Source: a virus. From it: a stretch of DNA of 37,727 nt. The notes below the pieces were generated by a model. It did not search any database and was not told where the DNA came from. It worked only from the letters and a program-made list of their open reading frames with translations. The stretch spans positions 1 to 37,727 of IMG/VR virus record IMGVR_UViG_3300048848_000022, one strand, 5' to 3'. Positions 9,928-37,727 of the stretch are shown here, one piece after another. The position numbers and the translations under genes are program-made. Numbering within the stretch: position 1 is the first letter of the stretch; each line of letters opens with the position of its first letter.

Positions 9928-10124
9928 TTGATTCTCTCGTATTTGATGGTTGTGACGATATGCTTGCGAACGCCGACCAACTCACACATTCGAGCGGTAG
10001 GGGCGCGGCCTCCGAGGACATCGCAGAGAACGGTTTTGTTTACCCCGTTCTGCCGAGCCCATTCCGTCTGCGATAGATTGCCGATGGATCGCACCAGTGC
10101 TTTACGAACTTGATCTTCTGTCAT
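9924..10124 (-). CDS. Small Cro-like HTH regulator (66 aa)
   Basis: ATG 10124 preceded by AGGAGG. LSQTEWARQNGVNKTVLCDVLGGRAP is HTH-like. It is the first gene of the leftward operon at a divergent intergenic region. The track ORF's 61-aa N-terminal extension is rejected. Confidence 0.6.
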   Translation of the reverse strand: MTEDQVRKALVRSIGNLSQTEWARQNGVNKTVLCDVLGGRAPTARMCELVGVRKHIVTTIKYERIK

Positions 10125-10241
10125 TGAACCTCCTGAACTTTCGCCACAGTGAACAAACTTTCTTTGCGGGTCAAGCCGAAGTTTGAGCTTGCGTGGTTTG
10201 TTTTGTCGTGCGTATATAGGGGAAGAAAGAGGAGAATAATT
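10125..10241. promoter_or_regulatory. Divergent early control region (candidate promoters and operators)
   Basis: Plus strand: TTGCGT (10189-10194)-N18-TATATA (10213-10218), then AGAGGAG and ATG 10242. Minus strand: CTTGACCC (-35 at 10169-10174) with a poor -10. Inverted repeats CAAACTT (10154-10160)/AAGTTTG (10179-10185) and AACAAAC (10152-10158)/GTTTGTT (10196-10202). Confidence 0.45.
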
Positions 10242-10967
10242 ATGACACACGGAAAGAGCGTCGTCGTGCCGTTGTCTGGCGCACCCTACGGCGACGACTT
10301 CCTGCAAGCCATCAACGGCTTTGCAACCGGAGGATCTACGCGCTGCCGTGACGCCATTGAGGAAGCGGGGGCGTCGGTCGCCTTCGGCGCGCTGTCGGGG
10401 GGAGACTATACGATGGTGCTGGCAGAAAAGCAGCCTTTCGAAGCCTTCCCGGCGCTAGCGCAGCATATCGAGCGCATGGCCGTTGGAGGATCTGTCGGGT
10501 CGCTGATCGAGTGGGACGCCTTCCTGCGCGAACTGAACGCCGCCATCGCAGCCGCCCCCGCCCCGTCATCGCTGGCGGGTGGTTCGTTCGGACGGGACCA
10601 AAGCACACTGGCCGACCTGACGCGGACGCTGGAAATGTGCGAGCGCGGAGAGGGTCACAACCCTGAAATGGTCTCGGTCCACGTCTCCACCTTCCGCGAC
10701 CTTCTCGCCGCCCTATCCCCGGAAGCCCCAGCCGAGGGGGCGGGGGAGCTTCTGCCCTGTCCGTTCTGCGGCGAGGATACGGCCAATGCTTATGTATTCG
10801 CCCGCCCCGGCGTCACTGCTTGCGGTGAAAGAGGCAAATGGCACGGGATAAAGTGTCATCACTGCGGAGCGGAAGGCGCCACATCGAACAATGCAGAGAA
10901 GACGGCCCAGATGTGGAACCGACGCGCCCGTTCGTCTGCGCCGGAAGCCCGCGATGCAGCCAATTAA
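10242..10967 (+). CDS. Multi-segment protein with C-terminal Lar-like zinc ribbon; carries linker repeats A, B, C
   Basis: ATG 10242 after AGAGGAG. LLPCPFCGEDT...IKCHHCGAEG...AQMWNRR is Lar-like. The segments are separated by APAPSSLAGG, LSPEAPAEGAGE and RARSSAPEAR. Confidence 0.65.
   Translation: MTHGKSVVVPLSGAPYGDDFLQAINGFATGGSTRCRDAIEEAGASVAFGALSGGDYTMVLAEKQPFEAFPALAQHIERMAVGGSVGSLIEWDAFLRELNAAIAAAPAPSSLAGGSFGRDQSTLADLTRTLEMCERGEGHNPEMVSVHVSTFRDLLAALSPEAPAEGAGELLPCPFCGEDTANAYVFARPGVTACGERGKWHGIKCHHCGAEGATSNNAEKTAQMWNRRARSSAPEARDAAN
10551..10581 (+). repeat. Linker repeat A, copy 1 (31 nt, identical to 17284..17314)
   Basis: ccgcccccgccccgtcatcgctggcgggtgg; encodes (A)PAPSSLAGG; internal CCCGCC/GGCGGG hairpin potential. 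Confidence 0.9.
10705..10749 (+). repeat. Linker repeat B, composite copy 1 (10705-10732 = 17461-17488; 10722-10749 = 17705-17732)
   Basis: tcgccgccctatccccggaagccccagccgagggggcgggggagc; encodes AALSPEAPAEGAGE. Confidence 0.9.
10923..10953 (+). repeat. Linker repeat C, copy 1 (31 nt, identical to 17868..17898)
   Basis: cgcgcccgttcgtctgcgccggaagcccgcg; encodes RARSSAPEAR. Confidence 0.9.
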
Positions 10968-11163
10968 ATCAGACGGACGCATAGCCATCGCGATTGATGG
11001 CGTTCCGATGCGTGACGAGGGCGGATACTACTGGCCTATGTCCGATATTGGCGCATGGGCGTGGGAACGTATCTTTCGCGATCAAGGCCATACGAAATGG
11101 GCTGACGAGGTAGCAGCGGCAGTTGCCGAGGCTAAGAAACAGAGAGGAGAAGACGATGAGTGA
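10954..11163 (+). CDS. Hypothetical protein (69 aa, MQPIKSDGRIAIAIDG...)
   Basis: Internal ATG of ORF 10891..11163; the sequence upstream of it is out-of-frame overlap with the previous gene. Confidence 0.55.
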   Translation: MQPIKSDGRIAIAIDGVPMRDEGGYYWPMSDIGAWAWERIFRDQGHTKWADEVAAAVAEAKKQRGEDDE

Positions 11164-11884
11164 TAAGATTGATGGATCGCCAAACATGGCGACGTGGGAA
11201 GCGCTTTGCGTTACGGACCCGGCCCACACAAAGGGCTTCAAGCGGGCCGGGGGCTTCTCAGGGACGGCGGTTAAGCCGCAATGGGTGGTGCGCCGCCTTA
11301 CGGAACATTTTGGCGCTGTTGGCGTCGGCTGGGGCATGGGTGAGCCGTCGTTCCAGATCGTTCCGACAGGACAGGAAGTCCTTGTCTTCTGCAAAGTCAG
11401 CGCGTGGCACACTGATGAGACTAACGTGTTCTGGGGCGTCGGCGGCGATAAGGTGGCTGTGCAGCGTCAGTCTGGTATGTTCACCGACGACGAGGCCTTC
11501 AAGAAGGCATACACCGACGCCGTCATGAACGCCTTCAAGTTCCTGGGTGTGGCCGCTGACGTTCATATGGGTCTGTTTGACGACAACAAGTATGTGGCGG
11601 AGGCTAAGGAGGCCTTTGCCCAGCCCAAGAATCCCACCGTTTCTGTCCAGCCTGAGGGTTTGGACTGGTACGGGGCTTCTGGAACCGGAATGTCGGCCTA
11701 CGCGGCCAAGCAGAAGAAGCTTGATGTCGTTCATGACCAGTGGCGGCAGGAGATTGCTTCTATTCCCACAACGGAAGCATTGCAGGTATGGGCCAGAAAC
11801 CATGATGAAGAAATCAAGGCCCTCCCTTGGTCTTGGCGCGTGGAGATTCGCGAAGAGTGGGACGCACGAAAGGCAGAGCTATGA
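11156..11884 (+). CDS. Single-strand annealing protein, Rad52/Sak-like
   Basis: ATG 11156 after AGAGAGGAGAAG. VKPQWVVRRLTEHFGAVGVGWG...DEAFKKAYTDAVMNAFKFLGVAADVHMGLFDDNKY is typical of Rad52-fold phage recombinases. Confidence 0.65.
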   Translation: MSDKIDGSPNMATWEALCVTDPAHTKGFKRAGGFSGTAVKPQWVVRRLTEHFGAVGVGWGMGEPSFQIVPTGQEVLVFCKVSAWHTDETNVFWGVGGDKVAVQRQSGMFTDDEAFKKAYTDAVMNAFKFLGVAADVHMGLFDDNKYVAEAKEAFAQPKNPTVSVQPEGLDWYGASGTGMSAYAAKQKKLDVVHDQWRQEIASIPTTEALQVWARNHDEEIKALPWSWRVEIREEWDARKAEL

Positions 11885-12165
11885 GCGGCCATACAAAAGG
11901 GCCTTGGTTCCTTGAGGGTGAGGGTGACTTCCGCGAAATCAGCGCGCCTGAACATCAGGCACTCGCCCGCGTCGTCTGGCAGATGGAAGACGACCGTATT
12001 TGCGGAGAAAGCTCACCGACACAGGAAGCCAACGCCCGCCTGATAGTCGCCTCTCCCGATATGCTGCACGCCCTCCGCCTAGTTCGCGCTTCGACAGAAT
12101 GGGCCTGTATGGAATCCTCAACGCAAGACGCTGTTTTGGCAGCAATTAACAAGGCAGAGCTATGA
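11881..12165 (+). CDS. Hypothetical protein, 'GPW...ANARLIxAxPDMLxAL' family (paralog of 4197..4529)
   Basis: MSGHTKGPWF...EANARLIVASPDMLHAL; ATGA overlap with the recombinase stop. Confidence 0.6.
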   Translation: MSGHTKGPWFLEGEGDFREISAPEHQALARVVWQMEDDRICGESSPTQEANARLIVASPDMLHALRLVRASTEWACMESSTQDAVLAAINKAEL

Positions 12166-12401
12166 CCGACAGCATTCCTAACAACCAGCTCAAGTCCATC
12201 GTTGACCGCCTGGAGCGCATCAACGAGGAAAAGGCCGCAGCTCGCGACGACTATAATGAGGTGTTAGCTGAGGCCAAGGCTAATGGATGGGATCAAGGGG
12301 CGTTACGACGACTGATCCGCCGCCGAGCCAAGGACCCGTCAAAGCGTGAGAATGAAGACGCGCTAGACGCACTTTATCAGTCGTCTGTTGGCGATCTGTG
12401 A
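12162..12401 (+). CDS. gapR: DUF2312 / GapR-like nucleoid-associated protein
   Basis: NNQLKSIVDRLERINEEKAAARDDYNEVLAEAKANGWDQGALRRLIRRRAKDP matches the UPF0335/GapR pattern (QLrsfieRIErLEeEK...EAK..GfD.kalR). Confidence 0.75.
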   Translation: MTDSIPNNQLKSIVDRLERINEEKAAARDDYNEVLAEAKANGWDQGALRRLIRRRAKDPSKRENEDALDALYQSSVGDL

Positions 12402-12457
12402 TACACTGAACGTGCGTTAAATGGCCCTTATGGGCGGACAGATAGGAAGGCTGACAG

Positions 12458-12802
12458 ATGGCATACGAAAAGAAGAATGGCGACCTTGCTGTGTTCAAGA
12501 ATGACCGCAAGGAAAAGGACAGCCACCCCGACTACACGATCTCTGGGCTTGGCCTCGATGGCTTTCCGATCAAGGGGGCGCTGTGGCTCAAGGAAGACCG
12601 CAACGGCAAGAAGTTCATGGCCGGTAAGATCGAAATTGATCAATACCTGATCGACAAAAACCCTGATCAATTTCGTAGCTCGGGTACTCGATCTGTGGCC
12701 GGGGGCGGTGGCGGTGGAGATTATCAGGAATCGGGCGGGCGCGATCTGCGCGAGAAGGCCTATAACATTCTAGATGATGATCTACCGTTCCTGATCTGGT
12801 AG
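12458..12802 (+). CDS. Putative ssDNA-binding protein: DUF736-like body + Gly-rich linker + SSB-type acidic tip
   Basis: GGAAGG 7 nt upstream of the ATG. ...HPDYTISG...GALWLKEDRNGKKFMAGKIE resembles DUF736. The C-terminus reads GGGGGGDYQESGG...DDDLPFLIW (compare the SSB tip DDDIPF). It sits between the SSAP and NinB genes. Confidence 0.5.
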   Translation: MAYEKKNGDLAVFKNDRKEKDSHPDYTISGLGLDGFPIKGALWLKEDRNGKKFMAGKIEIDQYLIDKNPDQFRSSGTRSVAGGGGGGDYQESGGRDLREKAYNILDDDLPFLIW

Positions 12803-12808
12803 CCAGCC

Positions 12809-13207
12809 GTGACCGACCAGATAACTCTAGCCCTGACTTCTTCGGATGTCAGGGCGAAAGCCGTTAAATGGTGTCAGGGATGCTCTGACGGCACGCGGGT
12901 TACGTTTGAGGGGCCTAAGCGGTCCTTAGACCAGAATGCGGCTATGCACGCGGCTCTAGCCGACATTGCCAAGCAGAAAGACTATCACGGGATTAAGCTA
13001 TCAACGGACGATTGGAAGTTGGTGTTCCTTGACGCGCTGATACGTGAGGTGCGCGTCGTGCCGAACCTGGCTGGTAATGGCTTTGTTAGCCTTGGCCGGT
13101 CGTCCTCACGCCTTAGCAAGCAGGAGTTTAGCGATCTGCTGGATCTGATCTATGCGTGGGGCGCTCAACATGGCGTCGAGTTCCGCGATCCTAGGCCGCC
13201 TCAATAA
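12809..13207 (+). CDS. ninB: NinB/Orf recombination mediator
   Basis: KRSLDQNAAMHA...DDWKLVFLDAL...VVPNLAGNGFVSLGRSSSRLSKQEFSDLLDLIYAWGAQHGV is near-collinear with lambda Orf (RSLDQN...VVPNLAGNGFVVIGQSTSRM). GTG start. Confidence 0.9.
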   Translation: MTDQITLALTSSDVRAKAVKWCQGCSDGTRVTFEGPKRSLDQNAAMHAALADIAKQKDYHGIKLSTDDWKLVFLDALIREVRVVPNLAGNGFVSLGRSSSRLSKQEFSDLLDLIYAWGAQHGVEFRDPRPPQ

Positions 13208-13547
13208 CGATGTGGACGCACGCACCAGGGCCGCTAGGACGACCTGACCACCGAGCCACTATCTCCATGCATTCGCTGTCGTCCCTGACCACGCCACAGG
13301 CTACTAGCGCATCCTCAGGCCCCTTGATGTAGTTCGACAGGTCGCGTTCTGCTTTTGACGGGCGGTCAAACGAAAGCGACATACGATAAGGACCGAGAAT
13401 CGCTTCCCGGCCCTCCATGTATTTTTTTATTTCTGGCTCTGCGATCTTGCGCCACTTTCGGTAAGCGGCCCCCATGATCTTCCGGCCCCGCACAACCGTG
13501 AACATATGATTCCCAGTCGGGGGCATAGGGAGTGAAAGCTTAATCAC
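13191..13547 (-). CDS. rusA: RusA-type Holliday-junction resolvase
   Basis: GTG 13547 after GGAGGAGG. LSLPMPPTGNHMF...AERDLSNYIKGPEDALVACGVVRDDSE matches RusA (LP.PPS.N...RRDLDN..Ka..DAL...DD). Its 3' end overlaps ninB tail-to-tail by 17 nt. Confidence 0.8.
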   Translation of the reverse strand: MIKLSLPMPPTGNHMFTVVRGRKIMGAAYRKWRKIAEPEIKKYMEGREAILGPYRMSLSFDRPSKAERDLSNYIKGPEDALVACGVVRDDSECMEIVARWSGRPSGPGACVHIVIEAA

Positions 13548-13690
13548 TTCCTCCTCCAAAGCCCGCACGACAGCGACATTCCAGCCCGCCTGACGTTCTT
13601 CGCCAGAACTCCAGCCTGCTTGAATACGTCGTTGTGGATGCGCCCTGGTGTCGTTTCGATGATGCGCTTGGCGCGTTCTAGCTGAGTCAT
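13544..13690 (-). CDS. Small hypothetical protein (48 aa, MTQLERAKRIIETTPGRIHNDVFKQAG...)
   Basis: Hand-translated; ATGA overlap upstream and GTGA overlap with the rusA start. It replaces the implausible R/H-rich N-terminal extension of track ORF 13191..13718. Confidence 0.55.
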   Translation of the reverse strand: MTQLERAKRIIETTPGRIHNDVFKQAGVLAKNVRRAGMSLSCGLWRRK

Positions 13691-13923
13691 GCAACCCTCC
13701 AAACACGAACGCCGCCATCCATAGATCGGGAAATGAAACTGTAGTTATCAGCGTACGAGACTTTCATGTAGGCGTTTGCCAGCCTCATTCGGTCTATGCT
13801 GCGCGTAAACAATGACTCTCCAACCGACATTTTAGAGAATGCAGCGCGCAGTTCTCCATTCGGCGATGTGGCGCGGTCAACGACTGGGATCATATGTCCG
13901 CGCTCGATTACCCACTCAGTCAT
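13687..13923 (-). CDS. Hypothetical protein (78 aa from MTEWVIERGH...)
   Basis: ATG 13923 overlaps the stop of the upstream ORF. Confidence 0.55.
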   Translation of the reverse strand: MTEWVIERGHMIPVVDRATSPNGELRAAFSKMSVGESLFTRSIDRMRLANAYMKVSYADNYSFISRSMDGGVRVWRVA

Positions 13924-14095
13924 CGAACGCCTCAATCACACCAGCTTCCGTAGCCGCGTCGATCCCCATCGAGAAGCCGCCTTGGCATCTAGGCGCAAAC
14001 TCAAATGCTCCGAAAACAAGCTTTCCGTCAAGGTGGATCGCTCTCGTACCGGCAGGAATGACGATGTCCCGCGTTGTCTTATACTCGCTCAGCAC
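13916..14095 (-). CDS. Hypothetical protein (59 aa from GTG; VLSEYKTTRDIV...)
   Basis: AAGGAG 8 nt upstream of GTG 14095. ATG 14152 of the track ORF lacks an SD and lies inside the GcrA-like gene. Confidence 0.45.
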   Translation of the reverse strand: MLSEYKTTRDIVIPAGTRAIHLDGKLVFGAFEFAPRCQGGFSMGIDAATEAGVIEAFDD

Positions 14096-14480
14096 GCGTT
14101 GCTCTCCTTTCTTGGTTCCATTTTTTCCAAGCCGGATAAGGAAGGAAAACATCAGACGCTGAATGCGTAGGGACCTTCCTGGATTTTACCCAAGCCAGAT
14201 TTCGATATTTGATGCAGTCTCTGACCTGTCGATAATGAAGGCCCATTTTGTCGGCTATTTCGTTGATGGTCATGCCTTGAGTGCAAAGCTTTGAAAGTTC
14301 CTCAATGCGACCCGGAGTCCATTTTACGCGACGGTCGTTACCACCTCCAGTTTTAAGGCGGTTGAGTTTACCGATGACGGCGTTTCGGCTGATGCCAGTC
14401 TTTTCAGATATTTGCCTTGCGTTGAGGCCCGATTGCTTCATCCTAACGACACGGCCTGTAAGTTCGTCGTCCCAAATCAC
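14079..14480 (-). CDS. gcrA: GcrA-like cell-cycle regulator homolog (two HTH-like repeats)
   Basis: IWDDELTGRVVRMKQSGLNARQISEKTGISRNAVIGKLNRL matches the GcrA N-terminus (W.de....L..lw.eG.SasqIA..lG.vSRNAViGKvhRL). A second repeat reads WTPGRIEELSKLCTQGMTINEIADKMG. Confidence 0.75.
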   Translation of the reverse strand: MIWDDELTGRVVRMKQSGLNARQISEKTGISRNAVIGKLNRLKTGGGNDRRVKWTPGRIEELSKLCTQGMTINEIADKMGLHYRQVRDCIKYRNLAWVKSRKVPTHSASDVFLPYPAWKKWNQERRATRAERV

Positions 14481-14638
14481 GACTTAACCCCCGCCGCCTT
14501 GCATGTCCGCTTACCGGGCGGCATTCGACCGGCCATGACGGCATGGATGTGTCCGACCTGGATTCCGATTTTAGCCGCAAACTTATCCGGTCCGCCTGAT
14601 GCGGTGACGGCGGCGATGACTTGATCGCGGGGGGTCAT
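14477..14638 (-). CDS. Small Cro/YdaS-like HTH protein (53 aa)
   Basis: MTPRDQVIAAVTASGGPDKFAAKIGIQVGHIHAVMAGRMPPGK; ATGA and GTGA coupling on both sides. Confidence 0.55.
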   Translation of the reverse strand: MTPRDQVIAAVTASGGPDKFAAKIGIQVGHIHAVMAGRMPPGKRTCKAAGVKS

Positions 14639-14883
14639 GCTGCGGTGCCGGGATGCGTCGGGAATGGTTGCCACGCGACAGGCAACTCTTTCTTGCCGAG
14701 CATATTCCACCGCTTTTCATCGGGAATCCAGCGTGAGACTGTGACGGTTTTCCCATCAGCGGACGCAACGATTACTGGCTCGGACTGATGAACTTTTCGC
14801 ACCGACCCCTTTGGACCCGGAAGTTCAATCATCTTGCCGCGTGGCGCGTTCTCTAAATCAGTTCTCCACTCGCTCATCATCAT
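14635..14883 (-). CDS. Hypothetical protein, DUF551-like (W..enAP.g...W.P.P)
   Basis: Triple ATG 14883/14880/14877 after GGTGAGGAG. SEWRTDLENAPRGKMIEL...PVAWQPFPTHP resembles 15894..16109. Confidence 0.55.
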   Translation of the reverse strand: MMMSEWRTDLENAPRGKMIELPGPKGSVRKVHQSEPVIVASADGKTVTVSRWIPDEKRWNMLGKKELPVAWQPFPTHPGTAA

Positions 14884-14912
14884 CTCCTCACCGACCCAAC
14901 GTCGGCACGCCC

Positions 14913-14940
14913 ACCATATCGCAGCGGTGGATATGCTCAA
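14913..14940 (-). promoter_or_regulatory. Promoter P7 (TTGAGC-N16-TATGGT) for the inverted island
   Basis: Minus strand reads CCTTGAGCATATCCACCGCTGCGATATGGTGGGCG; divergent from P1. Confidence 0.5.
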
Positions 14941-14973
14941 GGGAAATATGTGCGTCGGTGTCGATTTATGCAC

Positions 14974-15001
14974 TTGACCATAACTCGGGCCGGTGTATGG
15001 T
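14974..15001 (+). promoter_or_regulatory. Promoter P1 (TTGACC-N16-TATGGT)
   Basis: CTTGACCATAACTCGGGCCGGTGTATGGTTGAGG followed by GGAAGAGGAGAGATTGAGATG (15029). Confidence 0.55.
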
Positions 15002-15028
15002 TGAGGTATTGGAAGAGGAGAGATTGAG

Positions 15029-15427
15029 ATGGCCGTAACGGTTGGATCGAAAGAGCACGTCGAGGCGCAACGGACGCTTAACGAGCTGGCTTCAAAGGAA
15101 GTAGGCCTTATCCACCTTCAAACCCCCGCACAGAAAGCCCAGCAAACCGCCTATAACGAGTTCATCGCGGACTACGTTGAGCGGCATGGCGAATGCAAGG
15201 CGACGCGCGATGAGGCGCATGAGGTGGCGGAATGGATTGAGACGATGGCTAAAGAGGTTCTGTCGTTATGCCGCAAATACGCGGGAGACGATCTTGTAGC
15301 TAGTGATGCTGCAAATGACCTTGCTGCGGGATTTATCTGCGACGGATACAACGACATCGACGGCAAAGACGAGGCCAAGTTTCTAGCGGCCTGCGCGATT
15401 GCTGCGGCTTTGGAGGTGTCGGCATGA
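15029..15427 (+). CDS. Acidic hypothetical early protein (132 aa)
   Basis: First gene after P1; D/E-rich. Confidence 0.6.
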   Translation: MAVTVGSKEHVEAQRTLNELASKEVGLIHLQTPAQKAQQTAYNEFIADYVERHGECKATRDEAHEVAEWIETMAKEVLSLCRKYAGDDLVASDAANDLAAGFICDGYNDIDGKDEAKFLAACAIAAALEVSA

Positions 15428-15606
15428 TCCCCCACCCCGCAAACTACGAGCAATCCCTATCCCTGCTCACCTTCGCCATCGGATGCATCGAAGCTCATGC
15501 GCCGACCACGAAAGACGAGGCGGATAGGCTTTATTGGGCGGTAAGTCGCCTGGATCGCGCGGCTGTTAAGGCGGCTGGTGCTTTGAAAGAGGAGAAGGTG
15601 TGGTGA
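15424..15606 (+). CDS. Hypothetical protein (60 aa)
   Basis: ORF track; ATGA overlap. Confidence 0.55.
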   Translation: MIPHPANYEQSLSLLTFAIGCIEAHAPTTKDEADRLYWAVSRLDRAAVKAAGALKEEKVW

Positions 15607-15773
15607 TCAAGCGCGTTCTAAGCAATAAAATTACATGGCAGATAGCAAGGGGCGGCCTCCTTGGGGCGGCGGCATCTGGTGCTTTTCAAAGCAGCCTAAT
15701 GCACGGCGTTTTGATGTTCGTCGCCATGCTTTCTATCCACTCATCGTTGATGTTTTTGGAGGCGAGCAAATGA
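15603..15773 (+). CDS. Small membrane protein (56 aa, VIKRVLSNKITWQIARGGLLGAAASGAFQSSLMHGVLMFVAMLSIHSSLMFLEASK)
   Basis: Hand-translated; GTGA overlap upstream, ATGA overlap downstream; AGAGGAGAAGG upstream; two hydrophobic stretches. Confidence 0.5.
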   Translation: MIKRVLSNKITWQIARGGLLGAAASGAFQSSLMHGVLMFVAMLSIHSSLMFLEASK

Positions 15774-15892
15774 CCCGCCCCAGCATCCGCACCGCCGTAG
15801 AGATAGCGGCATTCATCGTCATGGTTACGGCCATGGCAGCAGTTTCATTGGTCAGCTTTTTGTTTCTGGCCGTTATGTTGGGAGGGGGTTGA
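15770..15892 (+). CDS. Small membrane protein (40 aa, MTRPSIRTAVEIAAFIVMVTAMAAVSLVSFLFLAVMLGGG)
   Basis: Internal ATG of ORF 15635..15892, coupled to the previous ORF; one long TM segment. Confidence 0.5.
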   Translation: MTRPSIRTAVEIAAFIVMVTAMAAVSLVSFLFLAVMLGGG

Positions 15893-15893
15893 G

Positions 15894-16109
15894 ATGTGGT
15901 TTCCGATTGAGAGCGCGCCTAAGGGCGGTACATATGTGCTGGTGTCTGATGGAGTAGAAGTCGAAAAAGCGAAGTTTCATGAATGGGAGCATTTTTTTAC
16001 CGAACAAAAAATTAGGGGATGGGTATTGAACTGGAACACTGAGTATGGATGTCCAGATGAATGGATGACGGCCACCCACTGGCAACCCCTACCGGAGCCC
16101 CCGCAATGA
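15894..16109 (+). CDS. Hypothetical protein, DUF551-like
   Basis: MWFPIESAPKGGTYVLV...THWQPLPEPPQ. Confidence 0.6.
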   Translation: MWFPIESAPKGGTYVLVSDGVEVEKAKFHEWEHFFTEQKIRGWVLNWNTEYGCPDEWMTATHWQPLPEPPQ

Positions 16110-16375
16110 CCGTCCGTATCGCAGTAACCCCAGCCATCCACCAATCCGTTCACAACGCCTCACAGGCCCTCAGCAGGGCCGCTACAGGGCTTAGCGGGTG
16201 GACGACATGGGAAAGCCTTCACCAGTCGGAGACGGCTATCAACCGAGCGATGGATGACCTTCGCAAGCTGCGTGGTCCAATCCGTGCGATGAAGCTGGAG
16301 ATCAAGCAGGCCGAGCGTCGGGCTGAGGTTGATCGGGATATTGTGGCGCGGAGTCAGAGGGGGGTGTGCGCGTGA
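16106..16375 (+). CDS. Hypothetical protein (89 aa)
   Basis: ATGA-coupled internal start of ORF 16061..16375. Confidence 0.55.
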   Translation: MTVRIAVTPAIHQSVHNASQALSRAATGLSGWTTWESLHQSETAINRAMDDLRKLRGPIRAMKLEIKQAERRAEVDRDIVARSQRGVCA

Positions 16376-16548
16376 TTGTCGAGAGAACTCAAAAGTATCA
16401 ACGCGCCATGAACTTTCGTTCATCTCACGCCCTTCGCATTCTCAGCGGAGAATCGTTCATAATTGCCGTTAGAGCGCCATGGTATAAAAGAATGATCGGC
16501 ATCAAGACCGTGAATAAGCGCTTTGGCGTCGTAAAGGATAAGGCATGA
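16366..16548 (+). CDS. Basic hypothetical protein (~58-60 aa)
   Basis: ORF track; GTG start at 16366 or 16372. Confidence 0.45.
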   Translation: MRVIVERTQKYQRAMNFRSSHALRILSGESFIIAVRAPWYKRMIGIKTVNKRFGVVKDKA

Positions 16549-16733
16549 CTACCCCAACCAACAACATCCACAAGCGCGGTTTCGCCAGCATGGACAAGGA
16601 CCGACTGCGGGAGGTCTCAAGCAAGGCCGGTGCGGCTGTTCCTGCTCATAAACGCTCGTTCGCAAAAGACCCGGAACTGGCAAAACGTGCCGGGGCTTTG
16701 GGTGGTGCAAAGAAGCTGGATAAAGACGCTTGA
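16545..16733 (+). CDS. KGG-repeat (YciG-like) stress-protein homolog
   Basis: KRGFASMDKDRLREVSSKAG...KRSFAKDPELAKRAGALGG fits the KGG-motif repeat (RGFASMD...SKGG...F..D.e.A.eAG.KGG). Confidence 0.5.
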   Translation: MTTPTNNIHKRGFASMDKDRLREVSSKAGAAVPAHKRSFAKDPELAKRAGALGGAKKLDKDA

Positions 16734-16757
16734 CCATAACCATGCGTGGTGTATGGT
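16730..16757 (+). promoter_or_regulatory. Promoter P2 (TTGACC-N16-TATGGT)
   Basis: CTTGACCATAACCATGCGTGGTGTATGGTTTGG, then AGAAGAGGAGAGAGAGATG (16780). The stop codon of the upstream gene lies inside the -35. Confidence 0.55.
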
Positions 16758-16779
16758 TTGGATAGAAGAGGAGAGAGAG

Positions 16780-17010
16780 ATGACGTATCGTATTGCAACG
16801 CTGGACCCGACTGACGCGCGGCCTATGCGACATAACGACGGATCAATGATTATTATGTACGGCGAGCCTGGAGGCGACGGTACGCGACCGGCATTGCTGG
16901 TTCCGATGATTATTCGCCCCAAACGAGGCGATGCATGGAAGACGCATGATCCGCAACAAGAGGAGTTTGCCAAGAAGGTTGTTGATCTTCTGAACGGAGA
17001 CGCAGCATGA
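16780..17010 (+). CDS. Hypothetical protein (76 aa, MTYRIATLDPTDARPM...)
   Basis: Internal ATG of ORF 16630..17010, directly after the P2 leader and RBS. Confidence 0.6.
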   Translation: MTYRIATLDPTDARPMRHNDGSMIIMYGEPGGDGTRPALLVPMIIRPKRGDAWKTHDPQQEEFAKKVVDLLNGDAA

Positions 17011-18230
17011 CCCGCGACGCTGAGGGCAGATCCACCCAGAGCGTCGTCGTGCCAGTTGAGCTAGTTAATAAACTTGTTCAGGAGCTGGCCCCCGACCAGG
17101 GCCAATCCGCAAGCATTGCCTTTGGGCTTGCTTTGGAGCTTCAAGGCGAGATTGCCGTGCCTCCATCTATCTCAACATTGCGCGCGGACTTGAATAACTA
17201 TGTGACGCGCTGCATCCGATCAACACCAGAGGCCGATATGAGCCTTGAGGAAGCGCTTATTTCTCGGGCTGCAAGGGCATTGTCCGCCCCCGCCCCGTCA
17301 TCGCTGGCGGGTGGGGAGGTGTGGGCTGCGTTGGAGCCATTCGCCAAGGTTGCGGATACGGCGCTGTGTCCGTCTGATGAGCCCGACGACAACGATTTCA
17401 TTCGTCTGGACGAAACGATTGCGATCACCGTTGCAGACATTCGCCGCGCCGCATCTGTGTTCGCCGCCCTATCCCCGGAAGCCCCAGCGCGGGAGGGGGT
17501 GGACACGTTGCGTGACGCCTTACAAGAGGCTGCGGACGCCCTATCGTTCATAGGGCGTAACGAGTTCAAGGTTCAGCCTGACGACACAGGACCGGGTGGA
17601 AGCGGGCGAAAGTCTTGGACGCGGACCATGGTGGAAACGGTCTCTTTCGCCAAACGTAAGGGCGCGGATGCTGCGTACGCCCTCACCCCCCGCCATGAAG
17701 CCCCAGCCGAGGGGGCGGGGGAGCGTGAGAGACTGACTGACGCGTATATTGCTGGCGCGATGTCGGTGCACGAATACTGGACCGAGAACCCCGGCGAAGC
17801 GCCGCGCGGCGACCCTGAGTTTGATGAAACGGCGGGCGACTACGCCTATTCCATCCTCTCGGACCTCCGCGCCCGTTCGTCTGCGCCGGAAGCCCGCGGG
17901 GAAGCGCTAGGAAACCTGCTGGCAGTCATTCACGGCGACGGCGGACACAGGGCACTGGAAGTCGGAACCAAACAGGCTGCGCTTGAGGCTGAAAAGATCG
18001 TTGCTGGTTTATTTGCCGCCCCGAGCGCCGACAAGCTGCGGGAGTTCGGCCAGCACACGAACCTCGAACTCAGCTACCACTACAGCGAGGAGGGCGACAG
18101 CGACGGCTGGCAGGTTCACCGCGTCAACGGCGGCGTAAACGACCGCGAATGGGACTTGATCGGATCGGGCGCAACGCCTGCCGACGCCATCGATCAAGCC
18201 CTAGCCGCCCTGAAAGCGGATGGTGCGTGA
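17007..18230 (+). CDS. Multi-segment hypothetical protein (407 aa) carrying linker repeats A, B, B', C
   Basis: ORF track. The same linker peptides as 10242..10967 occur in the same order (APAPSSLAGG; LSPEAPAREG; EAPAEGAGE; RARSSAPEAR) but separate unrelated segments. Confidence 0.65.
   Translation: MTRDAEGRSTQSVVVPVELVNKLVQELAPDQGQSASIAFGLALELQGEIAVPPSISTLRADLNNYVTRCIRSTPEADMSLEEALISRAARALSAPAPSSLAGGEVWAALEPFAKVADTALCPSDEPDDNDFIRLDETIAITVADIRRAASVFAALSPEAPAREGVDTLRDALQEAADALSFIGRNEFKVQPDDTGPGGSGRKSWTRTMVETVSFAKRKGADAAYALTPRHEAPAEGAGERERLTDAYIAGAMSVHEYWTENPGEAPRGDPEFDETAGDYAYSILSDLRARSSAPEARGEALGNLLAVIHGDGGHRALEVGTKQAALEAEKIVAGLFAAPSADKLREFGQHTNLELSYHYSEEGDSDGWQVHRVNGGVNDREWDLIGSGATPADAIDQALAALKADGA
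17284..17314 (+). repeat. Linker repeat A, copy 2
   Basis: 31/31 identical to 10551..10581. Confidence 0.9.
17461..17488 (+). repeat. Linker repeat B, copy 2 (5' half)
   Basis: 28/28 identical to 10705..10732. Confidence 0.9.
17705..17732 (+). repeat. Linker repeat B, copy 3 (3' half)
   Basis: 28/28 identical to 10722..10749. Confidence 0.9.
17868..17898 (+). repeat. Linker repeat C, copy 2
   Basis: 31/31 identical to 10923..10953. Confidence 0.9.
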
Positions 18231-18565
18231 TGGCTGGTCAGCACTGCTTCGACAAGCGAGGCACCCCCATTGAGCGTGGGGACGTAGTGAAGGTTTTCCA
18301 CTTCATCGGAGGTAGGGGCAAGCGGCACTACATGTTCAAGCAGTGCTTGGGCCTGAGCCGCTATCCTTCATCTCCCGAGGGATGGGCTGGCGTCTTTTTC
18401 TCGCACCTGAATTTCCGCGAGATCGGCGACCGCGACAACGGGCCGTATCACGAGGAGCCCGGCAAGTTTCTGTCCGGGTATGAAATCGTCCAGTCGATCA
18501 AATGTGACCACGAGGAACGTGAGCGCGCCACCCCTGACGCCCTGAAGGGGGATGCGAAGCCATGA
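18230..18565 (+). CDS. Hypothetical protein (111 aa)
   Basis: TGATG-coupled internal start of ORF 18149..18565. Confidence 0.55.
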   Translation: MAGQHCFDKRGTPIERGDVVKVFHFIGGRGKRHYMFKQCLGLSRYPSSPEGWAGVFFSHLNFREIGDRDNGPYHEEPGKFLSGYEIVQSIKCDHEERERATPDALKGDAKP

Positions 18566-18762
18566 GCGAAGAACGCGAAGTCACGACCCATGACGCGACG
18601 ACCGGCGAGACCGTAACGCGAACTCAGGTCGTCCACGTCATCGACACCGGCCACGAGCCAGGAGAGCAGGTCCAGGACAGCGAGACGGGGGAGATTATAT
18701 TTCCTGGCTGGCGTCGGCCCCTGCGGTTGATCGAAGGCGGACTGAATGGGGATGCGAAATGA
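18562..18762 (+). CDS. Hypothetical acidic protein (66 aa)
   Basis: ORF track; ATGA overlap. Confidence 0.55.
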   Translation: MSEEREVTTHDATTGETVTRTQVVHVIDTGHEPGEQVQDSETGEIIFPGWRRPLRLIEGGLNGDAK

Positions 18763-18896
18763 TCGGGTTCGAGGTGTCCGACATTGCGATTGTTGCCGCC
18801 TGCGCGCTGATCGCCGTTGCCATCATCTGCCGAACCGTGACCCATCTGAGCCGAAAGGATGATCGGCAGACCTTCTGGAGCGAATGGGATGACTGA
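18759..18896 (+). CDS. Small membrane protein (45 aa, MIGFEVSDIAIVAACALIAVAIICRTVTHLSRKDDRQTFWSEWDD)
   Basis: Hand-translated; ATGA overlap upstream; overlaps the next start by 8 nt; one TM segment. Confidence 0.5.
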   Translation: MIGFEVSDIAIVAACALIAVAIICRTVTHLSRKDDRQTFWSEWDD

Positions 18897-19353
18897 CGCC
18901 CCCACCACCCGAGAGACAGCCGACCATGCGGAACTCAAGCGGCTGGCTGAGGCTGCGAAGGCGCTGTGGTTAGACGAGGGATGGTTCGATTACCGAACTC
19001 TTTCTCTCGGGTTCGAACTAGATAGCGAAGACGCCGCCTTCATCGCCGCCGCCAACCCCGCTCGCGTCCTCGCCCTCCTGTCGGAGATAGCGGCGCTGCG
19101 TGGTGAGGTTGCGGCGTTAGACGAAATGCGCGGTGTTGTCCGCGTAGTCACAGCCAGAGCCACCCAAGCCGAGCGCCAGCGCGGCGAGTTGCGGAAGGCG
19201 CTGGAGCCGTTCGCCGACATAGGAAGCCGCTACCGGACAGGCGGGCTCCGTCAGGACATTGAGAGCCGCGCGCCCAGCTTCATGCGGCTGCTCGATTTCA
19301 AAGCGTTCCGTCACGCTGACAGCCTGATCGCCAACCAGGGAGCCGACCAATGA
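18889..19353 (+). CDS. Coiled-coil hypothetical protein (Ead/Ea22-like pattern AANPARVLALLSEIAALR)
   Basis: Internal ATG 18889 of ORF 18859..19353. Confidence 0.5.
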   Translation: MTDAPTTRETADHAELKRLAEAAKALWLDEGWFDYRTLSLGFELDSEDAAFIAAANPARVLALLSEIAALRGEVAALDEMRGVVRVVTARATQAERQRGELRKALEPFADIGSRYRTGGLRQDIESRAPSFMRLLDFKAFRHADSLIANQGADQ

Positions 19354-19508
19354 CCGACCGCGTGAAATGGATCGTGACCTATACTGCTGTGGCCGTCGTC
19401 AGCGCGCCGATATGGTTGTTTTGGGGGCGAATGTGGTGGGAGGGAGTCAACCGCATTCTGACAGCGCCGCTTTCCGAACTCATCTGCGTAGGGATGCAGT
19501 GCCAATGA
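19350..19508 (+). CDS. Small membrane protein (52 aa, MTDRVKWIVTYTAVAVVSAPIWLFWGRMWWEG...)
   Basis: Hand-translated; ATGA overlaps at both ends. Confidence 0.5.
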   Translation: MTDRVKWIVTYTAVAVVSAPIWLFWGRMWWEGVNRILTAPLSELICVGMQCQ

Positions 19509-19708
19509 CCGACCATAGCGCGGCGGCTTGCGGCTGTTACGACTGCCTGAAGGGCAAGGTGAACCCCGACACGGGTTGGCCGATCACGGCTTCGCGCTTC
19601 ATCGTCTGCCCTGACTGCGGGAACAAACGCTGCCCGAAAGCGACCAATCACGACAACGCCTGTACCGGATCGAACGCGCCCGGCCAGAAAGGGAGCCGTT
19701 ACGCATGA
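19505..19708 (+). CDS. Cys-rich zinc-ribbon-like protein (67 aa)
   Basis: CGCYDC...CPDCGNKRCPKATNHDNAC; ATGA-coupled internal start of ORF 19367..19708. Confidence 0.55.
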   Translation: MTDHSAAACGCYDCLKGKVNPDTGWPITASRFIVCPDCGNKRCPKATNHDNACTGSNAPGQKGSRYA

Positions 19709-19962
19709 CCTCCGACCATAGCGCGCTCATAGAACGGCTGGCGGAAACTCTCACGGCTATCGGCGGATGCTCGGACGGCGACTGCAAGGTCATTCCCCCG
19801 CGTGGAATGCACACGAACGGCGGCTGCAAGTGCTTCTACCGCGACCCCATGAAGGCCAACCGCGTCGTTCTGGCCTACCGATCCTTCGTCGGTCGTGCCG
19901 AGCTTCTGGCTGCTCGCCCCCTCCCATCCGCCCCTAACCAAGCAAAGGAGGCTGGAGAGTGA
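19705..19962 (+). CDS. Cys-rich hypothetical protein (85 aa)
   Basis: GGCSDGDCKV...GGCKCF; ATGA overlap. Confidence 0.55.
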   Translation: MTSDHSALIERLAETLTAIGGCSDGDCKVIPPRGMHTNGGCKCFYRDPMKANRVVLAYRSFVGRAELLAARPLPSAPNQAKEAGE

Positions 19963-20243
19963 TGGTTCATTCCGACGCCAAGAGCGGCTCCATACATGGC
20001 GGCGCGTGCGCCATCGTTGCAATCTTGCTGCTAGCTGGGTGTGCAGGCCCCTACGACGATTGGCCCCTTCGCCCTGCTGGATACGCGGGAGACACGCAGT
20101 TTTGGGAGGAGGCATTGAGCGGCTGCCTCTACGCATCCAGCGCCAAGGGCCGCTTCGAGCCCATGCCCCTGCTACGTCCAGACGGAACGCAAATGGGATG
20201 CCGCTCTAATCTCAACCCCAAGGCACAGGGAGAGGGACGATGA
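19959..20243 (+). CDS. Putative lipoprotein (candidate superinfection-exclusion factor)
   Basis: Signal peptide with lipobox: ...ACAIVAILLLAGC|AGPYDD. Confidence 0.55.
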   Translation: MMVHSDAKSGSIHGGACAIVAILLLAGCAGPYDDWPLRPAGYAGDTQFWEEALSGCLYASSAKGRFEPMPLLRPDGTQMGCRSNLNPKAQGEGR

Positions 20244-20410
20244 ACCCCATAGCCCAAGCCATCCACGACGTAGCCGAAGCTTGTGAGCAGCGCGTAGCTT
20301 ATCCCGGTCTATGGCGCGTTTATGCGGAGAACGGTCTAGTCTATTTCGAGAACATGGCTCATGGTGAGCCTGCCGTTGTGATCTGCACGGTTACGGGAGA
20401 GGTGGAGTGA
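20240..20410 (+). CDS. Small hypothetical protein (56 aa, MNPIAQAIHDVAEACEQRVAYPGLW...)
   Basis: Hand-translated; ATGA overlap upstream and TGATG overlap downstream. Confidence 0.5.
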   Translation: MNPIAQAIHDVAEACEQRVAYPGLWRVYAENGLVYFENMAHGEPAVVICTVTGEVE

Positions 20411-36691: not shown

Positions 36692-37727
36692 TTAGGTTGC
36701 GTCTATGGTCTGCCCCATCTGGAACTGAGCGGCCTTCAGCACTGTATCGGCCTCTGTACCGCGCGCCTGAGCCTCGGTCAGTTCGGCCTTGGCGTTGTCC
36801 ATGCGGATTTTTGCCTCTGCTGTCAGTTTGGCAAGCTCGGCCTGCATCTGCTGCATTTGCTGCTGCATCTGAGCCTGCTGTTGCGCAGCCGGATCATCCC
36901 CGCCCTTCGCCTCCTCAATGATGTCGCGGACAGCCTGCTTGTCGGAGATGGCAGACAGGGCCAGCCCGACTTTGAACGACGCCTCGGGGCCAATCGCAGC
37001 GGCCAGAGCGGGCAGCATGGGCGACAGGGCCTCAAACTGTTCAGCTTGCAGGTTCGCCGTGTCAGGAACCGTCTCGACCTCAATGTCGATGTCCATCGTG
37101 GCGAGGTTGTTCATGATCTGCGGAGGGGCGACGCCTTGCTGCTGCATAGCCTGCATAATTTCGGGCGGAACCGGATTGCCCTCGGCGTCGGCAGGTTGAT
37201 TGACCGGCAGGAACTCTTGCTTGCCCTCTGCCCCCGTAATACGCACCCACCACGGTTCGGTCTTGAATTGCTTGAGGCGCATCCAGACTTGGTCCCAGAT
37301 GCCTCCCTCCCAGTCTTCCAGGCGACCAAGGGCGCGAGCAATCTCGGTCATACCTGCCTGTTGCTGGATCAGCTTGGCGCGTCCCGAGGCAGATGCAGTC
37401 GATGCGTCAGACAGCACAGCGGGCGTAGGGGCTTGGCGAACAAGGGCCTGCCTCGCATCGCCAATCATCATCTGGATGCTCTGCATCAGGTCTTGCGTCG
37501 GCACGATTGACCAACCCGCAGGCAATGCGCCGTCAGGTTTAGCGGCCTCCGCCTTGGCTGTCTGTGCAGTAGCGTCAGGCGGGAAGTTCGGATCAGTCAC
37601 CTGAATCTGACGGCTGTTGGCCAGATGCAGCGCGCGGGAGCTATATGCGTTAAGCTCATCCTGCGGCGACAGCATCGAACGCGTCAGGCCATAGCGCTGA
37701 TTATCGATGTCGATGAAGCACGACCCC
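36692..37727 (-). CDS. Portal protein, C-terminal part (37601..37727 duplicates 1..127)
   Basis: The frame stays open to the window end and is in phase with 1..1008. The Gln-rich helical tail QQQAQMQQQMQQMQAELAKLTAEAK recalls the P22 portal barrel. Confidence 0.8.
   Translation of the reverse strand, partial: GSCFIDIDNQRYGLTRSMLSPQDELNAYSSRALHLANSRQIQVTDPNFPPDATAQTAKAEAAKPDGALPAGWSIVPTQDLMQSIQMMIGDARQALVRQAPTPAVLSDASTASASGRAKLIQQQAGMTEIARALGRLEDWEGGIWDQVWMRLKQFKTEPWWVRITGAEGKQEFLPVNQPADAEGNPVPPEIMQAMQQQGVAPPQIMNNLATMDIDIEVETVPDTANLQAEQFEALSPMLPALAAAIGPEASFKVGLALSAISDKQAVRDIIEEAKGGDDPAAQQQAQMQQQMQQMQAELAKLTAEAKIRMDNAKAELTEAQARGTEADTVLKAAQFQMGQTIDAT
37601..37727. repeat. Terminal direct repeat, copy 2
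   Basis: Identical to 1..127. Confidence 0.9.

Follow-up and report, generated by a model that had tools for sequence, protein, structure and literature searches.

A stretch of 37,727 nucleotides (nt) from the IMG/VR virus record IMGVR_UViG_3300048848_000022 contains two open reading frames (ORFs), orfA and orfB, in which dissimilar segments are separated by linkers that recur in both genes. Here 'the window' refers to this whole stretch of 37,727 nt, and all window coordinates refer to it. Its first and last 127 nt (1-127 and 37601-37727) form an exact terminal direct repeat, which indicates a circular assembly and a complete genome of about 37.6 kb. The orfA gene is the first after a divergent control region. 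The features of the two loci and of their surroundings are collected in Table 1.

Table 1. Linkers, modules, junctions, and recombination genes of the window.
Feature	Coordinates	Strand	Remarks
orfA	10242-10967	+	241 aa; first gene of rightward early operon
orfB	17007-18230	+	407 aa
Linker N	10255-10270 (orfA) = 17038-17053 (orfB)	+	16 nt; xSVVVP (K/Q-SVVVP)
Linker A	10552-10582 (orfA) = 17284-17314 (orfB)	+	31 nt; APAPSSLAGG
Linker B1	10705-10732 (orfA) = 17461-17488 (orfB)	+	28 nt; AALSPEAPA
Linker B2	10722-10749 (orfA) = 17697-17724 (orfB)	+	28 nt; EAPAEGAGE
Linker C	10923-10953 (orfA) = 17868-17898 (orfB)	+	31 nt; RARSSAPEAR
Linker T	17678-17707	+	ALTPRHEAPA; orfB only; fused to B2 via 11-nt core
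Linker D	18015-18041	+	AAPSADKLR; orfB
Lar-family restriction-alleviation zinc-ribbon module	10749-10928	+	orfA residues 170-229
M module (EALGNLLAVIHGDGGHR...GLF)	17901-18014	+	38 aa; constant framework module
SPDY/DUF317-like module	18063-18224	+	orfB residues 353-406; weak match
orfB tail ALAALKADGA, stop, and overlapping start of next gene	18189-18234	+	conserved gene-boundary junction
Gene-boundary junction island	18528-18568	+	...TPDALKGDAKP and stop, Shine-Dalgarno, ATGA overlap; 95-100% identical in unrelated contigs
Gene-boundary junction island	19324-19359	+	conserved junction
Gene-boundary junction island	19918-19965	+	...APNQAKEAGE and stop, GTGA overlap
Gene-boundary junction island	20206-20246	+	right edge of array; backbone similarity to contig L038 resumes at 20229
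Candidate recombination protein	11153-11884	+	PHROG 7838, 2489, annotated "exonuclease"
NinB/Orf recombination mediator	12809-13207	+	between orfA and orfB loci
RusA-like Holliday junction resolvase	13191-13718	-	between orfA and orfB loci

The two genes share five exact direct repeats (N, A, B1, B2, and C), all collinear and in frame. With lengths of 16-31 nt, they surpass every other internal exact repeat of the genome, the 127-nt terminal overlap aside, the next longest being 15 nt. No repeat matches appeared in 100 dinucleotide shuffles, even when up to 3 mismatches were allowed. The linker peptides are rich in Pro, Ala, Ser, Glu, and Gly. A previous reading of this DNA from its letters alone (the sequence-only reading) had reported exact repeats in the same order and frame in two ORFs, which is borne out, with B1 and C at the coordinates that it gave and with N as a fifth shared repeat that it overlooked. 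Its 31-nt identity of A and 28-nt identity of the second B pair also stand, while the orfA copy of A is displaced by 1 nt from the 10551-10581 reported and the orfB copy of B2 by 8 nt from 17705-17732.

The order of elements in orfA is N, module, A, module, B1 fused to B2, Lar zinc ribbon, C, and end. In orfB it is N, module, A, module, B1, module, T fused to B2, module, C, M module, D, SPDY-like module, and tail, so that T, D, and the tail are elements beyond the shared repeats. What had been read as a composite B in orfA is indeed B1 fused to B2 through a common 11-nt core, GAAGCCCCAGC (10722-10732). The two linkers lie 219 nt apart in orfB, where the same core fuses T to B2. This core occurs three times in the window against 0.02 expected, and one to five times per gene in the related genes described below. 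Between the linkers, the similarity ends as the sequence-only reading had noticed, since BLASTP of orfA against orfB inter-linker segments gives either no alignment or E ≥ 0.13. Hairpins that it had proposed at the repeats were not supported, as folding of six linker regions gave no greater stability than in shuffles (z-scores of -1.7 to +1.3). Neither promoter nor terminator matches were found there.

The Lar-like zinc ribbon that had been recognized between linkers lies in orfA and is supported by NCBIfam TIGR03655 (39.9 bits, cut-off 39.6) and PHROG 599 (E = 4e-11), and the match to Pfam PF14354 is marginal (25.9 bits, under the 28.6 cut-off). The JGI contig annotation of orfA (protein P0281) is "Lar family restriction alleviation protein". 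The module reads LLPCPFCG...IKCHHCG...MWNRRA, and thus has a four-cysteine zinc ribbon (CPFC...CHHC) and a C-terminal W-N-R-R motif like the Lar family, for which we take this combination to be defining. Lar is usually a stand-alone protein of about 60 aa, whereas in orfA it is one bead of three, and orfB has no Lar module. The M module of orfB shows 97-99% nucleotide identity in other contigs. More distantly, at about 40-68% identity, it is related to sequences in about 20 unrelated viral contigs (L014-L034), and it belongs to no Pfam family. The SPDY-like module has stand-alone homologues of 74-92 aa elsewhere.

The structure of orfB was modeled by AlphaFold2 with a 60-sequence alignment. 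The model consists of helical modules with a predicted template modeling score of 0.33, which suggests no fixed overall shape. The predicted local distance difference test (pLDDT) score is under 50 at A (residues 93-104), B1 (155-162), and T/B2 (227-233), so three of the four internal linkers are of low predicted order. A Foldseek search of the model against BFVD gave no match at E < 1. For orfA, modeled by AlphaFold2 from its single sequence, pLDDT was 40.8, too low to be informative.

These two genes belong to a larger family. An orfB protein search returned 58 proteins, the named ones being from Brevundimonas bullata, and all of them have the same ordered linker set (including SVVVP, APAPSSLAGG, AALSPEAPA, LTPRHEAPA, EAPAEGAGE, RARSSAPEAR, and APSADKLR). 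The same order was seen in searches with orfA and with the second dialect described below, and at least 60 proteins from Brevundimonas phages and prophages and from metagenomes carry this set. Here 'beads gene' refers to a gene in which modules are strung between such linkers. The family order is N, A, B1, T, optional extra 'xEAPA' separators, B2, and C, followed by an optional 38-aa M module, an optional C2 (LLSSAPEAREGEAV), D, and a tail that is either ALAALKAEGAK or STPDALKGDAKP. The order N-A-B1-T-B2-C-(C2)-D is maintained in 70 proteins, while the number of modules between T and B2 varies among members. An exact-protein look-up of orfB itself in the contig index gave no entry.

When the 70 proteins were cut at the linkers, 378 modules of at least 15 aa were obtained, which fall into 194 similarity clusters, 140 of them singletons. 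There are 3-9 modules per protein, with module lengths of 20-250 aa and protein lengths of 200-600 aa. The modules match 26 different PHROG families and few Pfam families, as Lar, SPDY, UPF0175, and weak others were the only Pfam matches when 60 members were scanned, with no peptidase domain among them. Zinc ribbons, helical hairpins, RNase H-like, and Ead/Ea22-like modules also occur in other members. Separately, enzyme-like or DNA-binding modules were observed behind the same linkers in L048, L051, L054, P0187, and P0025; these are a MazG-like module (sub-threshold, 21.4 bits with a cut-off of 22), an FtsK-gamma module (63.8 bits), and a DnaJ-type CxxCxGxG zinc finger. Among 1.84 billion representatives searched exhaustively, 551 proteins were found, many of which are stand-alone proteins of 74-118 aa matching one orfB module, indicating that the modules are independent small phage proteins that are fused in orfB. 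Thus the inter-linker segments are not diverged homologues, as they have no similarity, match different PHROG families, and have stand-alone counterparts elsewhere.

A second linker 'dialect' has the same architecture, with APVREEGGAV, ATREEAPAEAGE, RAQPQAREEAQPV, PAPEAEKLR, and ALAALQQEG. Its carriers are B. diminuta, B. naejangsanensis, and related prophages, the first dialect being of the B. bullata type. The same repeats as in the window occur in an isolate genome of B. bullata (NZ_JACHLM010000007.1). Megablast of window 10000-18500 against 50,697 phage records gave no match, and no description of this protein family was found in the open-access literature.

Conservation of the linkers was compared at the nucleotide level. 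Contigs were collected by exact linker scans (L001-L005), by a protein-pattern scan (L007-L013 and L035), by exact-protein look-ups (L036-L039 and L056), and by a fully degenerate APAPSSLAGGE codon pattern in metagenomes (L040-L055). The 18 contigs found without exact-nucleotide matching serve as a set free of that bias. In its 74 linker occurrences, only 10 of 642 codons differ from those of the window, mostly at the last wobble position, while the fraction of identical codons expected from the phage's own usage is 0.31, so that about 69% should differ. Codon usage of the phage is weak, and many linker codons are minor ones, such as CTA for Leu (0.11), TCA for Ser (0.12), and GGG for Gly (0.15). 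The degenerate scan found eight family members, seven of them with identical codons. In all, about 20 other contigs, some with unrelated phage backbones, contain these linkers with unchanged codons and order, which excludes that the repeats are unique to this genome.

Conservation is higher in the linkers than around them. Backbone genes of L012 and L038 are 77-95% and 73-95% identical to those of the window, and their orthologous beads genes have only linkers, M, and short junction islands in common with it; linkers A, C, and D are identical in 98 of 98 nt between the window and L038. L036 differs in backbone (primase, Terminase_3) and matches window nucleotides only in the array, where its linkers N, A, B1, T, B2, C, and D have no mismatch over 184 nt. 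The beads gene of L036 (10001-11329) lies outside an early operon, with the terminase gene on one side, the portal gene on the other, and many small genes around it. A module common to L012 and L036 has about 20 mostly synonymous mismatches over about 180 nt, while the flanking linker cores have none. When shared modules were matched with their flanking linkers, 100/1092 synonymous differences were counted in the modules and 14/344 in the linkers (Fisher p = 0.002), and with a strict filter on high-scoring segment pairs (HSPs), which leaves too few columns, p was 0.14.

Footprints of exchange were then sought in alignments. Among family members, 177 of 201 interior HSP ends (88%) lie within 12 nt of a linker, where 44.6 would be expected. 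Variant junctions also exist. In L056, where synteny with the orfB locus is shown by 86-95% identity to window 15580-16783, the gene at this locus starts with the N-to-A cassette of orfA (window 10255-10582, 99.1% identical). The alignment runs from the first base of repeat N to the last base of repeat A, and only linkers match beyond it. L012 has flanks of 95% identity to the window at its orfA locus, where the gene consists of N, a different module, and a hybrid linker GCAGCCGCCCCCGCCCCG|GAAGCCCGCGATGCAGCC, in which the left half of A is joined to the right half of C. The linkers C and C2 have 24 nt in common (core TCGTCTGCGCCGGAAGCCCGCGAG) and bracket the M module where both occur. The L056 junction is of the type that the sequence-only reading had predicted. 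That reading had also anticipated a deletion or duplication of 6.7 kb that would join orfA to orfB, and none was found; such a deletion would remove NinB, RusA, the GapR-like gene, and regulators, and may not be viable.

Recombination functions encoded between the two loci could take part in such exchange. The identities of NinB and RusA given by the sequence-only reading hold. The product of 11153-11884, which it took for a Rad52-like single-strand annealing protein, has PHROG 'exonuclease' matches only and no Pfam, NCBIfam, or PDB sequence match. Relatives that carry beads genes have other recombination modules, RecT in L039 and YqaJ in L038. The minimal efficient pairing segment is 23-27 bp for Red-beta and 31-34 bp for RecA (PMC3945230). 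Linker lengths are 24-31 nt, and up to 46 nt with adjacent identity, so they exceed the Red-beta minimum and approach that of RecA.

We conceived that linker DNA could serve as an in-frame junction for homologous recombination, mediated by host RecA or by the phage NinB, RusA, and putative annealase. Crossovers in two linkers would swap the module between them, and a crossover between linkers sharing a core (GAAGCCCCAGC in B1, T, and B2, or TCGTCTGCGCCGGAAGCCCGCGAG in C and C2) would delete or insert modules. Since both genes contain the same linkers, cassettes could also move between the orfA and orfB loci. If exchange or gene conversion recurs within a host-associated pool, the junctions in that pool would stay identical, in keeping with the existence of two dialects. 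Downstream of orfB, the same principle may operate through conserved stop, Shine-Dalgarno, and start junctions between small genes.

Window 16784-20229 is a hypervariable cassette array with conserved junctions. Compared with the backbone relatives L038, L040, and L012, only islands of 27-84 nt match in it, and these are the in-frame linkers of orfB, parts of an Ead/Ea22-like ORF, and gene boundaries. At the gene boundaries, conserved tail codons double as the Shine-Dalgarno sequence, together with an overlapping stop and start. The Ead/Ea22-like gene (18859-19353, + strand; PF13935, E = 8e-9) is itself mosaic, as its islands 18889-18958, 19036-19109, and 19159-19214 match otherwise different genes in L008, L035, L037, and L038.

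Two other observations concern the surroundings. A promoter-like sequence, TTGACC-N16-TATGGT, is present in two copies on the + strand (14974-15001 and 16730-16757) within a 45-nt direct repeat that is 71% identical, and the second copy is in a block (16543-16783) that is conserved in L012, L038, L040, and L056 and lies directly upstream of the array. A gene for a GapR-like DNA-binding protein of the Caulobacterales-type nucleoid-associated kind (12162-12401, + strand; PF10073, E = 1e-20) fits a Brevundimonas host, and its product may be a host-mimicking regulator.

Similar arrangements are known in other phages. In T-even tail-fibre genes, His boxes reportedly separate hypervariable segments, according to work by Tetart et al. 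as cited in PMC3157838. Likewise, conserved glycine-rich motifs (GRMs) separate hypervariable segments in the T-even gp38 adhesins (PMC3157838). In these genes, as in beads genes, strictly conserved motifs in a fixed order delimit variable segments within one ORF, and inter-phage exchanges in or near the motifs produce chimeric proteins, just as breakpoints occur at linkers in beads genes. However, the gp38 motifs form the structural core of one receptor-binding domain with variable loops, whereas beads genes have disordered linkers between unrelated whole domains. Moreover, gp38 is a virion adhesin, whereas beads proteins are early or accessory, and their junctions are common to two loci of one genome.

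In PeSL cassettes of T4-type phages, short repeated elements flank small non-essential genes in hyperplastic regions (PMC2839356, PMC4122927). Recombination between their copies inserts, deletes, or replaces intervening genes, and the window islands at 18528-20246 behave similarly. PeSLs are intergenic units of promoter and stem-loop terminator, whereas the linkers are translated, in frame, distinct from each other, ordered, and without significant secondary structure. Integron- and shufflon-type systems have a dedicated recombinase and palindromic or inverted sites, neither of which is present at the beads loci among the neighbours scanned. In lambdoid phages, short conserved boundary sequences are found at gene junctions, as in the modular-evolution hypothesis of Susskind and Botstein. 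They are likewise located at module edges and were proposed to target homologous recombination between unrelated neighbours, but are intergenic, few, and weakly conserved, whereas the linkers are mostly inside ORFs, synonymously invariant, and 7-10 per gene.

Polyvalent proteins of phages and conjugative elements contain 2-15 domains in one polypeptide (PMC5512222). They resemble beads proteins in having many unrelated domains, some of them anti-restriction, in one phage-encoded polypeptide. On the other hand, none of their hallmark domains (MPTase, SNF2/helicase, MTase, ParB, ART, lysozyme) was found in the 60-member Pfam scan, and polyvalent proteins are encoded among virion-associated genes, while beads proteins are small, made of mini-modules, and encoded in the early operon; conserved linkers are not described for the polyvalent proteins in PMC5512222. 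The beads genes would function like the gp38, PeSL, and lambdoid examples, by recombining at conserved junctions, and are unlike them in that translated, disordered linkers of fixed order separate unrelated whole domains of early proteins, at two loci, with synonymous invariance across unrelated phages.

We consider it probable that orfA and orfB encode beads-on-a-string early proteins of a Brevundimonas phage and prophage family, in which the linkers act as in-frame junctions for homologous recombination. That the linkers are points of recombination or gene conversion in a domain-shuffling scaffold, as the sequence-only reading had suggested, is supported by the same linkers in other contigs, the variant junctions, and the unrelated segments between them, and frequent exchange or gene conversion would uphold the linker identity. 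Several points weigh against it. The evidence for exchange is comparative, with no event observed directly. The HSP-end counts are dominated by non-independent pairs, and the matched module-vs-flank test rests on few independent pairs. Repeat N has only 16 nt, under the published minimal pairing lengths, and 11153-11884 is only a putative annealase gene. The folded M module shows synonymous differences of 3.5%, compared with 3.8% for linkers, in a count over all HSPs that is inflated by weak HSPs. Invariance thus not being confined to the linkers, some of it could reflect a recent spread of a common framework rather than a property of linkers. In addition, some modules sit in different slots, which exchange at slot-specific linkers cannot yield, so illegitimate events would also contribute. 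The sub-module GDYTMVLAEKQPFEAFPALAQHIERMAVGGSVGSLIEWDAFLRELNAA (window 10400-10549, orfA residues ~54-103) is one that occurs in different slots, in both dialects (P0018, P0034, and P0283-P0292).

Among other explanations, the linkers could be conserved for a function of the protein, as protease sites of a true polyprotein or as motifs bound by a host factor, with recombination being incidental and the nucleotide identity simply following from recent common ancestry. In favour of this, the peptides show strong conservation and a fixed order, their predicted state is exposed and disordered, and they come in two host-species dialects (B. bullata and B. diminuta types) as if read by a host factor; polyvalent phage proteins have also been proposed to be processed into functional units (PMC5512222). 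However, this leaves unexplained the synonymous invariance (10/642 codons, with ~69% expected to differ) while modules and backbone diverge by 5-27%, and the 60 members scanned contain no peptidase domain. We therefore regard it as unlikely on its own, although a protein-level function may coexist with a role in recombination. Ordinary mosaicism would instead make the linkers remnants of a young scaffold gene that spread recently, with the modules joined illegitimately and selected. The invariance of M and the modules in different slots would agree with this, as would genome surveys in which homology traces accompany only ~30% of phage mosaics (PMC3945230). Against it, linkers stay at 100% identity where that of shared modules is 79-92% and where backbones have either no relation or 72-95% identity, breakpoints at linkers are four times as frequent as expected, and repeat boundaries coincide exactly with the ends of the L056 cassette and of the fused and hybrid linkers. 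Random joining with selection would also hardly place ~190 module families between the same junctions, and we hold this explanation to be quite improbable.

Dedicated site-specific or programmed rearrangement within one genome, like that of integrons, shufflons, or cassette antigens, could account for the cassette-like layout, the repeated separators, and the variable module number between T and B2. Yet no recombinase or invertase adjoins either locus among the neighbours scanned, and a silent array of donor cassettes is absent from the window. The linkers are dissimilar to one another and are direct rather than inverted and non-palindromic, with hairpins no better than those of shuffles, all of which makes this very improbable. 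Diverged paralogues with patchy conservation would have shared blocks in the same order and frame, as orfA and orfB do. The blocks between show no similarity, however, and the module types differ (zinc ribbon vs helical). As for an assembly artefact, the same repeats are present in the isolate genome NZ_JACHLM010000007.1 and in many independent assemblies, and they are shorter than the 127-nt overlap of the contig ends. Paralogy and artefact are scarcely credible, and were ruled out by the unrelated inter-linker segments, the isolate genome, and the codon identity in the 18 contigs.

A further idea, which goes beyond recombination at the linkers and which we find tentative and rather doubtful, is that they are a selected evolvability device, namely in-frame sockets that are nucleotide-identical across unrelated Brevundimonas phages. 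If so, hundreds of small effector modules would be open to any phage for insertion into an early polyprotein that is expressed, and modules could move between loci, in both cases with the reading frame intact. This would be a protein-coding analogue of integron and PeSL cassette arrays, and would illustrate the Susskind-Botstein 'linker' model more clearly than any other natural case.

Whether phage mosaics form mainly by random illegitimate joining followed by selection or by homologous exchange at short conserved sequences has long been asked in phage evolution. The beads family bears on it unusually cleanly, as 7-10 defined junctions of 24-31 nt per gene, synonymously invariant in about 20 contigs, enclose hundreds of unrelated modules, and footprints of replacement, deletion, and inter-locus transfer are visible. 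With this family, the mechanism of mosaicism becomes directly testable. Our working view of the proteins themselves is that they would be multi-effector early proteins for host takeover or anti-defence. The family hints at a large untapped catalogue of small early-gene modules, one of which is Lar and which may be anti-defence or host-takeover effectors, and it suggests a natural design for in-frame modular assembly.

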